Source: Nitrosopumilus sp.
GTDB lineage: Archaea > Thermoproteota > Nitrososphaeria > Nitrososphaerales > Nitrosopumilaceae
Assembly (NCBI GenBank): GCA_965207445.1
Contig: CBDBLX010000002.1
Span: 192,001-256,000 of the forward strand
Direction: 5' to 3'
DNA length: 64,000 nucleotides
This document shows positions 36,531 to 39,759 of this stretch, piece after piece. The position numbers were made by a program, and so were the translations under genes. Positions within the stretch are counted from its first letter, which is position 1. Each line of letters starts with the position of its first letter. The notes under the pieces were generated by a model. The model saw nothing but the letters and a program-made list of their open reading frames with translations. It searched no databases and had not been told where the DNA came from.

Positions 36531-36899
36531 TTACAATATCAACAATTACTGTTTAGGGCTTTCATATTTGTGGTTTGTTTTAGATGATTTCTACCAATTA
36601 TCAAATTATAGCGATGTTCATAAATTCTGGTACAACTAAAAAATCATGCTAGGTAATTTTTAACAGACATCTTTGTATAGAAATACTCAGCAATTCAGAT
36701 TTGTCATATTTTTTAAAATATAGTGTCAAAAAATGTGGTATCGGGGCTTTATGATACACACGTGAGCTAACATGTGACGGGACATGCAAACATAGAGATG
36801 ATATGTGGTACTTTTAGCCTACACTATATTCACCTATTTTTGAATCAGCAGTGCTGGAATTTGCCTTTACAAATGGACACATGAGGCTTTTTGGCGGAC

Positions 36900-37200
36900 T
36901 GCACTTTCAAAATTTTGTAAATTCATTCAAATATGTGATTGTCAACAAACTCGTACACGGTATTTAGATGGGTAATTTTGTAAGCAGTATTCTGATTGCG
37001 TCATCAACTGCTCACTTGAGTATACTCATACCTCTTCTATCGGATTCAGATGCATGTCAAGTAGGGCCGAAAGATGATAATGCCATGTGTTCTAAAGAAA
37101 TTTTGTGCATTTTTAAAAGTGTGCCACGGCGCTTTGTCAAGCACCAATACCATTGCCCACAACCTTGTTGTAGACGTTCTCAATATGCTCTAAAAAAATA
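36900..37200 (-). pseudogene. IS630-family transposase remnant
   Basis: Frameshifted MVLVLDKAPWH and HLNPIEEV motifs; boundaries approximate. Confidence 0.65.
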
Positions 37201-37214
37201 TCCTCATGAGGAAG

Positions 37215-38519: not shown

Positions 38520-38543
38520 GTTTAGTCATGATCTTTTATCTTA

Positions 38544-38588
38544 TGTGTGCACTTCAAAAAAGTAAAACAGTTACACATTTGGAGGGGG
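38544..38588. repeat. Repeat family C, copy 1
   Basis: TGTGTGCACTTCAAAAAAGTAAAACAGTTACACATTTGGAGGGGG; similar to 42007-42050. Confidence 0.7.
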
Positions 38589-38975
38589 TGGGATATAACC
38601 TATGGCCTTTATAGTATCATTTATTATGTATGTATCTTTATCAGTTATAATATATGGTTTAGATTGATCACCTGCTGGCCCTGCAGTAGTTGACCTTGGT
38701 TCAGGGTCTGCATCTACTGGTTCAGGTTCAGTAGTTGGTTCATCTACTGGTTCAGGGTCTGGTTCATCTTGCGGCCCTGCAAGTGTTGTATACCCATTGT
38801 CTACAAGCCAAGATATTATATTCAAATAAGTTTCATCATCTATATCACCATTTGCCCAAAAACATGCTACTTCTTTAATCCAGTCTGGTATCTCTGCATA
38901 TGCAGTTCCTACAGTTGACAGACTTGTAATTATCATAATATTTGCAAAAATCGTTATTGTTTGTCTGCCTTTCAT
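38571..38975 (-). pseudogene. Truncated IPxWIK-domain surface protein with EP-rich linker
   Basis: Signal peptide, IPDWIKEVACFW, EPEPVD repeats; ends inside an Ig-like domain, with the stop supplied by repeat C. Confidence 0.65.
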
Positions 38976-39130
38976 TCCATGTGTGGAAATTTGGTACTTA
39001 TGACTTTGAAATAATAAAAAAATCTAGTACAGTAGCATTCTGTACTATGCAATTGTCAGTTAATCTTATTATACACATCTATCTTATTAATTTTATTACC
39101 CCTATATTAAACACAATTAATTAATACAAT

Positions 39131-39140
39131 TATTTAAATA
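39131..39140 (+). promoter_or_regulatory. Putative TATA box of the atypical tRNA
   Basis: TATTTAAATA 21-30 nt upstream of 39161; the region is AT-rich, so specificity is low. Confidence 0.4.
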
Positions 39141-39160
39141 TAATAATAGCTGGTAAATAT

Positions 39161-39233
39161 GGGCCAGTAGTATCATAGGCAATGCGTGTAATTGTCAGTT
39201 GTATGATCACGGGTTCAAATCCCGTCTGGTCCA
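39161..39233 (+). tRNA. Atypical tRNA-like gene: GTC (Asp) anticodon with G3:U70 and A73
   Basis: GGGCCAG/CTGGTCC-A; D stem GTAT/ATGC; anticodon arm TGTAA-TTGTCAG-TTGTA; T arm ACGGG-TTCAAAT-CCCGT; 73 nt. Confidence 0.75.
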
Positions 39234-39263
39234 CTCTATTTTGTCACTTCAGTAGTTCAAAAA

Positions 39264-39757
39264 GTGACGGTGTCACGAGACTTGGAGAAGAACGGACTCG
39301 TACAATTTGACATGTGGAACGAGGGTGAGTCTAGTTTCAACAGCAGACACAGGCTGCAGAGGTACGTGTTCTTGGCAAAGCGCTTTGGGCTTGACATGCA
39401 CTACGAGTATGACATGATGTGCTTGTACGGGCCCCCCCAGTCCAGAGCCTTGATGGGCGATTATCTCAAATACGCGGGAAACCACACGAGAAGCCCCGGA
39501 CGGCAGGATGATGACCGTCAGATCGTGATACGGCTTCCAGAGTCGTTTCGAAGTGGAGAGTTTCTGGACTTTGTCAGGAACAGGGACGACGATTGACTGT
39601 ACGTGGCCACTACTTTGATGGACCGCAGTGAAACTCTTCCTAACAGGAACGACTTGATCGAAAACGTCAAATGGACCACCCCCAGGTTTTCCATAGAGTA
39701 CATTGCAAACGTGCTGTATGAGCTGCAGGCCGCACATATGATAGACCTAAAACAATA
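39264..39757 (+). pseudogene. SocA/YwgA-like antitoxin-type remnant
   Basis: RLQRYVFLA...YEY...LYGP; an in-frame TGA at 39594-39596 is followed by LYVATTLMD. Confidence 0.5.
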
Positions 39758-39759
39758 AC

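Follow-up and report, generated by a model that had tools for sequence, protein, structure and literature searches.

A tRNA gene with alanine identity and an aspartate anticodon, and its predicted antisense RNA gene: a possible two-RNA toxin-antitoxin-type module in archaea and bacteria

What does a cell gain or risk from a tRNA gene that carries the anticodon of one amino acid on the acceptor stem of another? Such a gene lies in the window, the whole 64,000-nt stretch of Nitrosopumilus sp. DNA analysed here, and an earlier note had read it as a lone candidate for Asp-to-Ala mistranslation. The gene and its flanking signals are these:

39161..39233, plus strand: extra tRNA gene, putative toxin, with an alanine acceptor (G3:U70, A73) and the anticodon GUC at 39194-39196
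39133..39140, plus strand: TATA-like box of the tRNA, TTTAAATA, at -28 to -21 from G1, a consensus match only, within an AT-rich spacer
39239..39242, plus strand: T4 run past the tRNA, a weak terminator candidate from sequence

The 73-nt cloverleaf with G3:U70, A73, GTC, G38 and C14 described for this gene was confirmed in three ways. ARAGORN calls a tRNA-Asp(gtc) at 39161-39234, the Rfam model RF00005 matches 39161-39233 with 48.3 bits (gathering score 29) and with standard pairs throughout the stems, and direct reading gives G1:C72, G2:C71, G3:U70 and C4:G69 followed by A73, together with a 7/5 acceptor branch, a variable loop of 5 nt and no encoded CCA. The first four acceptor pairs are identical to those of three host tRNA-Ala. 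The folding z-score is -3.4 (against 200 shuffles), but the cloverleaf (-14.9) is not the most stable structure: in the fold of lowest energy (-24.7) the acceptor and T arms are retained and the anticodon is buried. The upstream TATA-like box claimed for the gene is present, as is the downstream T run, but with four T only. An assembly error as the source of the gene was ruled out by an identical 506-nt contig in runs X1 and X3, which spans 38773-39278 with zero differences and which, possibly coming from the assembly's own sample, is not independent. A permuted tmRNA called by ARAGORN at 39144-39602 was also rejected, as the Rfam tmRNA model scored 28 bits where its gathering threshold is 47.

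Judged by its identity elements, the gene is neither a canonical tRNA-Asp nor a canonical tRNA-Ala. According to excerpts of PMC9976931, aspartate identity consists of G73, G34, U35, C36 and C38, and G3:U70 suffices for alanylation in several systems. Here GUC is present but combined with A73 and G38 where G73 and C38 are needed, the same GUC stands in place of the NGC anticodon of a tRNA-Ala, and G3:U70 sits in a paired acceptor stem together with A73. The host genome (2.6 Mb, repeat-rich) contains its own tRNA-Asp with G73 (C2:604605), the separate canonical gene that the earlier note had wanted confirmed, as well as three tRNA-Ala bearing G3:U70 and one AlaRS gene, and the 39161 tRNA is therefore an extra gene. 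Its 48/73 identities to the nearest host tRNA-Ala speak against the plain decay from a host tRNA that had been considered, and the idea of an integration target was dropped, as its 3' end has no distant copy in the genome other than the host tRNA-Ala. Asp-to-Ala decoding is most likely the designed activity of the tRNA; GAC and GAU make up 6.9% of the codons in long open frames.

The location of the gene in an accessory patch, as had been proposed, is supported by the variable interval between DnaJ and glnA, which measures 3.6 kb here and 0.8-3.2 kb in four of the five relatives searched (the fifth has no close glnA match), and by the absence of such a tRNA from nine loci taken from these intervals, which also gave no blastn match to the interval of the window. 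No synthetase was found among the neighbouring ORFs. The ORF at 39264-39758 (plus strand) has an in-frame TGA at 39594-39596 where paralogous contigs have TGG, matches no Pfam or NCBIfam family at cut-off, and has an 82% similar copy at C2:1844903; run X5 (a small share) matched this ORF only. Directly past the tRNA, a motif of ~30 nt with a short palindrome (39249-39278) recurs at six places in the assembly and is likely a mobile-element end or recombination site, while a multi-copy repeat end (38527-38574) and a multi-copy fragment (36606-37207) are probably insertion-sequence remains.

A second RNA gene is predicted on the other side of the tRNA, with the following features:

39016..39063, minus strand: putative antitoxin, a predicted antisense RNA of ~48 nt with inferred ends, in divergent orientation 97 nt upstream of the tRNA
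39047..39062, minus strand: single-stranded seed at the 5' end, complementary to tRNA nt 26-41, covering the entire anticodon loop
39025..39047, minus strand: 8-bp hairpin followed by a U7 run (39022-39016), a terminator-like match with a predicted duplex structure
39083..39094, minus strand: TATA-like element of the antisense RNA, at -34 from the base opposite tRNA position 35, a distance conserved in the family

The seed could pair with the anticodon arm over 16 bp (13 Watson-Crick and 3 G:U), and the hairpin loop and 3' strand are predicted to offer a second contact with tRNA nt 5-13. A scan of the region found two terminator-like structures where 0.1 were expected, one of them being this hairpin; the evidence from the TATA-like element is weakened by the AT-rich context. 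The other tRNAs of the genome reach at most 8 Watson-Crick pairs over the anticodon with the small RNA (24 rows), or 10 in a wider test, and its best partner among them all is the 39161 tRNA (-32.1, the next being -27.2). The roles might also be reversed, with the small RNA as a toxin acting on a host tRNA and the tRNA-like RNA as its sponge, or the tRNA might be a decoy for an anticodon nuclease. The small RNA does start with the codon of its tRNA, and CreT-type RNA toxins sequester tRNA, going by the title of a work cited in excerpts of PMC10767807. However, the host tRNA-Asp does not appear in the seven tRNAs ranked next for the small RNA, and a sponge or decoy requires neither an intact alanine acceptor nor the lack of Ala anticodons seen in the family (below), making this a very improbable explanation. 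The reading of a lone mistranslator lacked the predicted cognate antisense gene, and with it the best reading of the locus is a controlled two-RNA module, compact and of toxin-antitoxin type, whose toxin would mistranslate to alanine; we assign this reading a probability of roughly 0.6.

A BLAST-type search of 301 family genomes returned T-arm matches only and zero full-length homologues, and pattern searches were therefore needed. These demanded G3:U70, A73, U33 and a purine at 37, so that these features are invariant by construction, and since the members are kin their counts are not independent. An alanine acceptor with a non-G35 anticodon was found 14 times, in 9 of the 401 family genomes (0 in the reversed control), and a relaxed pattern hit 29 of 401 genomes of the class, 11 of which were true tRNA-Ala out of register, leaving 18; two further genomes from another 401-genome search bring the archaeal class to 20. 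The earlier note had suggested looking for homologs in related genomes and in viruses: the former exist by this pattern search in the 20 class genomes, but the IMG/VR scans (21 and 6 matches) gave no clear viral member, being mostly register artefacts (tRNA-Tyr, tRNA-Ala) with a few phage G3:U70 tRNAs that have no partner. The distribution is patchy, with members in 18 of the 401 class genomes, pattern matches in 4 of 401 genomes from the phylum of G401, and a maximum of six copies, differing in anticodon, in the genome G080. GTDB and metagenome scans yielded at least 119 matches each, without totals, and 221 of the 256 parsed were true tRNA-Ala matched through a variable gap; among the matches listed, members from beyond the archaeal class come from records titled Acidobacteriota, Dehalococcoidales and Gammaproteobacteria MAG, and from metagenomes. 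Some members stand among transposase, type ISP restriction, DarTG or T4SS genes, which speaks for the two-RNA module, and many between housekeeping genes with no evident mobile element, which speaks against it.

Left out of the counts were L351 (no ARAGORN call, a mispaired acceptor and no partner) and the duplicates L316 (= L117), L315 (= L085), L313 (= L140) and L366 (= L356). L005 (U2:C71, degenerate) was left out of structural comparisons and counted as a miss in the 36-member partner tally, and G260, G092, G093, G258, G206, G228 and G077 enter the tallies as negatives only. The bacterial set (n=28) holds only members chosen by having a partner and therefore gives no frequency.

The anticodons of the 32 archaeal members are GAA (14), GUC (5), CAG (4), AAG (3), GAG (2), GAU (1) and AUC (1), with UCU or CUC in the two whose loop is ambiguous, and three more archaeal members carry GAA with C33 (L369-L371). 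Across the family the codons aimed at are those of Phe, Asp, Leu, Ile, Glu/Arg and Cys, with synonymous forms for Leu (CAG, AAG, GAG) and Asp (GUC, AUC); an in-register Ser, Pro or Thr anticodon on an Ala body was found in none of 401 genomes, and an extra Ala-anticodon copy in none of five cassette-rich genomes. The bodies are diverse (the nearest member is 73% identical), and the retention of stems despite divergence that the earlier note had stressed is seen throughout, acceptor pairs 4-7 being paired in 138/140 archaeal and 112/112 bacterial/metagenomic cells with varying sequence. Selection on alanine identity across the family, rather than chance, appears supported. Several further tRNAs with G3:U70 and A73 carry Val, Arg, Lys, amber, Tyr(AUA) or Ile anticodons and have no partner at threshold (L077, L083, L233, L260, L255, L046, L061, L232), some of them with odd anticodon loops and two from Acidobacteria records. 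In G014 there are two extra GUC tRNA-like genes with G73 (L322, L323) and no seed-type partner, with an inverted near-complete copy behind L323.

Position 37 is A in 30/32 archaeal and 28/28 bacterial members (the pattern permitted A or G). The anticodon stem has conserved mismatches, 31:39 being unpaired in 21/32 archaeal members and 27:43 being G:G in 17/28 bacterial ones, and its median pairing probability is 0.02 in archaeal and 0.0 in bacterial members, versus 0.92 in host tRNAs. Such unstable arms would ease strand invasion by the partner and may also limit decoding; in that they could mean poor decoding, they count against the two-RNA module across the family, and so does the charging of GAA/A73 and GAU/A73 members by their cognate synthetases, which presumably may also occur. 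The mismatches would equally suit a tRNA-like RNA that harms without clean substitution, through ribosome stalling, frameshifting, or AlaRS or EF drain, and that is still neutralised by the antisense RNA; most allo-tRNA(UAU) variants were inactive in suppression and two still caused cell death (PMC5389517, excerpts). We regard this as quite unlikely, as A37 and an anticodon repertoire that is narrow and yet varies synonymously speak for a role of codon reading. Weak arms and the C33 variants (L369-L371), which would curb decoding, are also what regulated, beneficial mistranslation might look like, in which the same switch diversifies the proteome or hardens it against stress at a low level, with no addiction or killing. 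The many chromosomal contexts fit this as well, and tRNA-ProX mistranslators raise the carbenicillin tolerance of E. coli (PMC10404621, excerpts), but the patchy spread, the up to six copies per genome and the allele-specific partners have the look of selfish modules, and we deem the beneficial alternative unlikely.

Evidence for the two-RNA module comes from the partners themselves. In 14 of the first 15 members the flank aligns with tRNA nt ~8-40 better than shuffles do (p <= 0.025 each), either as a direct copy upstream after an A-run or as an inverted copy downstream before a T-run, and both layouts give the same predicted product, a short antisense RNA with a free 5' seed, a U-run, and a 3' hairpin able to pair with tRNA nt 5-16. 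An adjacent partner (at least 11 Watson-Crick pairs over the anticodon) is found in 31 of 36 archaeal members, in divergent (22), tandem (8) or convergent (1) layouts that all yield antisense RNA. A T-run of at least 5 stands at the 3' end on the antisense strand in 30/31 and on the opposite strand in 0/31, and a TATA-like motif lies at -32 to -37 in 30/31. The 28 bacterial/metagenomic partners have TTGAC upstream in 25 cases, in 19 of them between -36 and -38 counted from the base that faces position 35, and a terminator-like hairpin behind. Out of sample, after the hypothesis had been written down, a partner was found in 21 of 24 new members and then in 3 of 3 later ones. Among the matches listed in the public scans, a downstream partner of at least 10 pairs accompanies 21/35 non-Ala members, including 15/15 with GUC; at the same threshold the controls gave 2/221 true tRNA-Ala and 0/184 other tRNAs. 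Against the two-RNA reading, 5/36 archaeal members, the mispaired L351 and 13/35 of the non-Ala public-scan matches lack a partner at threshold.

The pairing is also specific. The cognate tRNA ranks first for 14 of the first 15 partners (one tie) and for 44/57 in a larger set, where most misses are near-identical bacterial copies, and close relatives that differ in anticodon differ in the seed to match (L342/L352, L031/L040). On the two-RNA reading, a joint change of anticodon and seed would give new specificities, so that several modules could coexist in one genome. Archaeal tRNAs are modified by guide RNAs, and the small RNA might accordingly be a box C/D-like guide or a chaperone of tRNA modification or processing. 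This has next to no weight in our view, because the C box (RUGAUGA) occurs in 0/59 partners (0/31 archaeal, 0/28 bacterial), no Rfam family reaches gathering level on the partners of 10 loci, and the pair is also found in bacteria, which are not known to have C/D guides.

The window's own copy departs from the family in several respects. Position 14 is C (A in 31/35 archaeal members), 15:48 is A15:C48 (a canonical pair in 32/35), and the anticodon arm, with its G:U-rich stem, is the least stable among the 32 archaeal members compared (+4.8 kcal/mol), so that the caution voiced over C14 and the weak anticodon stem was justified. These features suggest an attenuated or decaying toxin gene, and the module may be one in which the toxin gene is dying or attenuated and the predicted antitoxin is still in place; that this copy is an active mistranslator in vivo is somewhat doubtful. 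The same features, along with the nonsense codon in the neighbouring ORF, would also fit a functionless decayed or duplicated tRNA, the match upstream of it being a remnant of partial duplication or an attachment site, and duplicated tRNA copies do match in controls (L336, L391). For the family as a whole decay or duplication is unlikely, and as a full account we find it barely credible: the partners are rebuilt as seed, hairpin and T-run, can lie either inverted on the downstream side or direct on the upstream side, consistently face the way that yields antisense RNA (30/31 against 0/31), and have positioned promoter motifs.

A sister family has serine bodies. In the same genome, at C2:1646701-1646788 (minus strand), there is an extra long-arm Ser-type tRNA with G73 and the Phe anticodon GAA, with a divergent hairpin RNA ending in a T-run at C2:1646828-1646875; the variable arm and anticodon stem of this tRNA form 15 perfect pairs with this partner, and similar cassettes are L382, L383 and L384. 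Overall, 18 Ser-bodied non-Ser tRNAs were found in 8 genomes, with a partner within 500 nt in 4/18. Extra Ser-bodied tRNAs with UAU, GAU, GAA or UCU and no nearby antisense partner are L385-L388, L390, L391, L394, L398, L399 and L401-L403, of which L385, L394, L398 and L399 precede a similar ORF and L391 is a tandem array of three. As these tRNAs mostly lack partners, such tRNAs can persist with no adjacent antisense gene, which counts against the two-RNA reading. Ala and Ser synthetases ignore the anticodon (G3:U70; serylated anticodon variants; PMC9976931, excerpts), and the use of precisely these two bodies supports mistranslation as the selected trait.

How might the module work? The tRNA gene, as is visible in its sequence, brings an alanine identity set together with a non-alanine anticodon. 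By established chemistry, the host AlaRS, blind to the anticodon, would charge the tRNA with Ala, which in the window's case would be inserted at GAC/GAU and damage the proteome. The predicted, separately promoted RNA of ~45 nt would pair with the anticodon loop via its free 5' seed, open the weak anticodon stem and make a second contact at tRNA nt 5-16, thereby blocking folding, maturation or decoding; the complementarity co-varies in sequence, and its function would be neutralising. If the antisense RNA were lost or not replenished (through element loss, transcription shut-off in infection, or stress), the more stable tRNA would be freed, with addiction or abortive defence as the outcome. 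We consider it slightly better than an even bet that this describes a widespread, undescribed and protein-free class of toxin-antitoxin systems found in both archaea and bacteria. Their toxin would be a mistranslating tRNA that can be re-addressed, and their antitoxin an antisense RNA that is specific to the allele and directed at the anticodon arm of this tRNA; with the same confidence, the class would cover the Ala body and the sister Ser body, and anticodons for Asp, Phe, Leu, Ile, Arg, Glu or Cys.

Our literature search, outside which most subscription papers lay, turned up no paper describing a tRNA gene paired with a cognate antisense RNA. The closest natural mistranslators are the allo-tRNAs described by Mukai et al. 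in Acidobacteria (8/4 and 9/3; excerpts of PMC5389517, and of the review PMC7609411), which likewise join Ser or Ala identity to non-cognate anticodons, cause missense suppression and death in E. coli, and occur near toxin-antitoxin genes (PMC5389517). Acidobacteria carry both these and the present Ala-bodied family, which differs in its 7/5 cloverleaf (as in the window, where the 8/4 or 9/3 branch is absent), its short variable loop, its occurrence in archaea too and its dedicated predicted antisense gene. The word 'antisense' is absent from the main texts of both papers and of a 2024 review (PMC11415595), although the supplementary allo-tRNA locus figures may bear on this point. The tRNA-ProX of Streptomyces and Kitasatospora (ProA/ProN/ProT), natural mistranslators toxic in E. 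coli, also reuse a single body with several wrong anticodons, but have Pro identity (C1:G72) and an operon with ProRSx, with 0 occurrences of an antisense partner in the main text (PMC10404621, excerpts). The present family has Ala identity, would use the host AlaRS and has no conserved protein partner, and the window's tRNA has G1:C72 with no neighbouring ProRSx.

With type VIII systems, of which TADB 3.0 lists CreTA and SdsR-RyeA as validated (PMC10767807, PMC9458426, excerpts), the module shares a putative RNA antitoxin and the arrangement of two neighbouring RNA genes, encoded on one strand or on opposite ones and no more than 200 bp apart; in the window the two genes, both predicted only, lie 97 nt apart on opposite strands. 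Unlike in the known systems, the toxin would be a tRNA. The SdsR and RyeA genes overlap on opposite strands, whereas here, whatever the layout, the partner occupies a locus of its own and is a bipartite copy that has evolved separately. CreA acts through Cascade, whereas no CRISPR repeat and no adjacent cas locus were found here: no CRISPR-repeat family matches the partners, and the sole Cas1 match of the genome (C2:80241) is 150 kb away. By sequence comparison the module thus lacks the defining features of both. Antisense RNAs of type I systems are short and allele-specific, with their own promoter and terminator, in convergent, divergent or tandem layouts; the difference is that the target here would be a tRNA anticodon arm instead of a toxin mRNA, with no toxic peptide. 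By analogy, we propose that the module operates in the manner of type I or type VIII systems. Known mistranslators and type VIII systems both differ from it, and we regard the tRNA-plus-antisense architecture as categorically new.

If this is true, a toxin can be made of tRNA and a natural tRNA silenced by its own antisense gene, which would offer an explanation of how cells carry potentially lethal mis-specified tRNA genes, a question open for the allo-tRNAs. Should toxicity and rescue hold, the module would count formally as a type VIII system of a new kind, and an orthogonal switch for controlled codon-to-alanine mistranslation is a possible use. Because annotation pipelines name such genes by their anticodon, they appear as ordinary additional tRNAs, and the class goes unnoticed in public genomes. 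Since the whole module measures 170-260 nt, would need host enzymes only, and has standard promoter motifs in its bacterial members, it is directly testable in E. coli.

Two further observations concern the host assembly. Contig C1 (121 kb) repeats part of C2 at 98-99% identity, as either a strain variant or a duplicate, with contamination at 5.5%. The tRNA-Glu(UUC) at C2:646367-646480 has an apparent T-loop intron, because of which ARAGORN truncates it.
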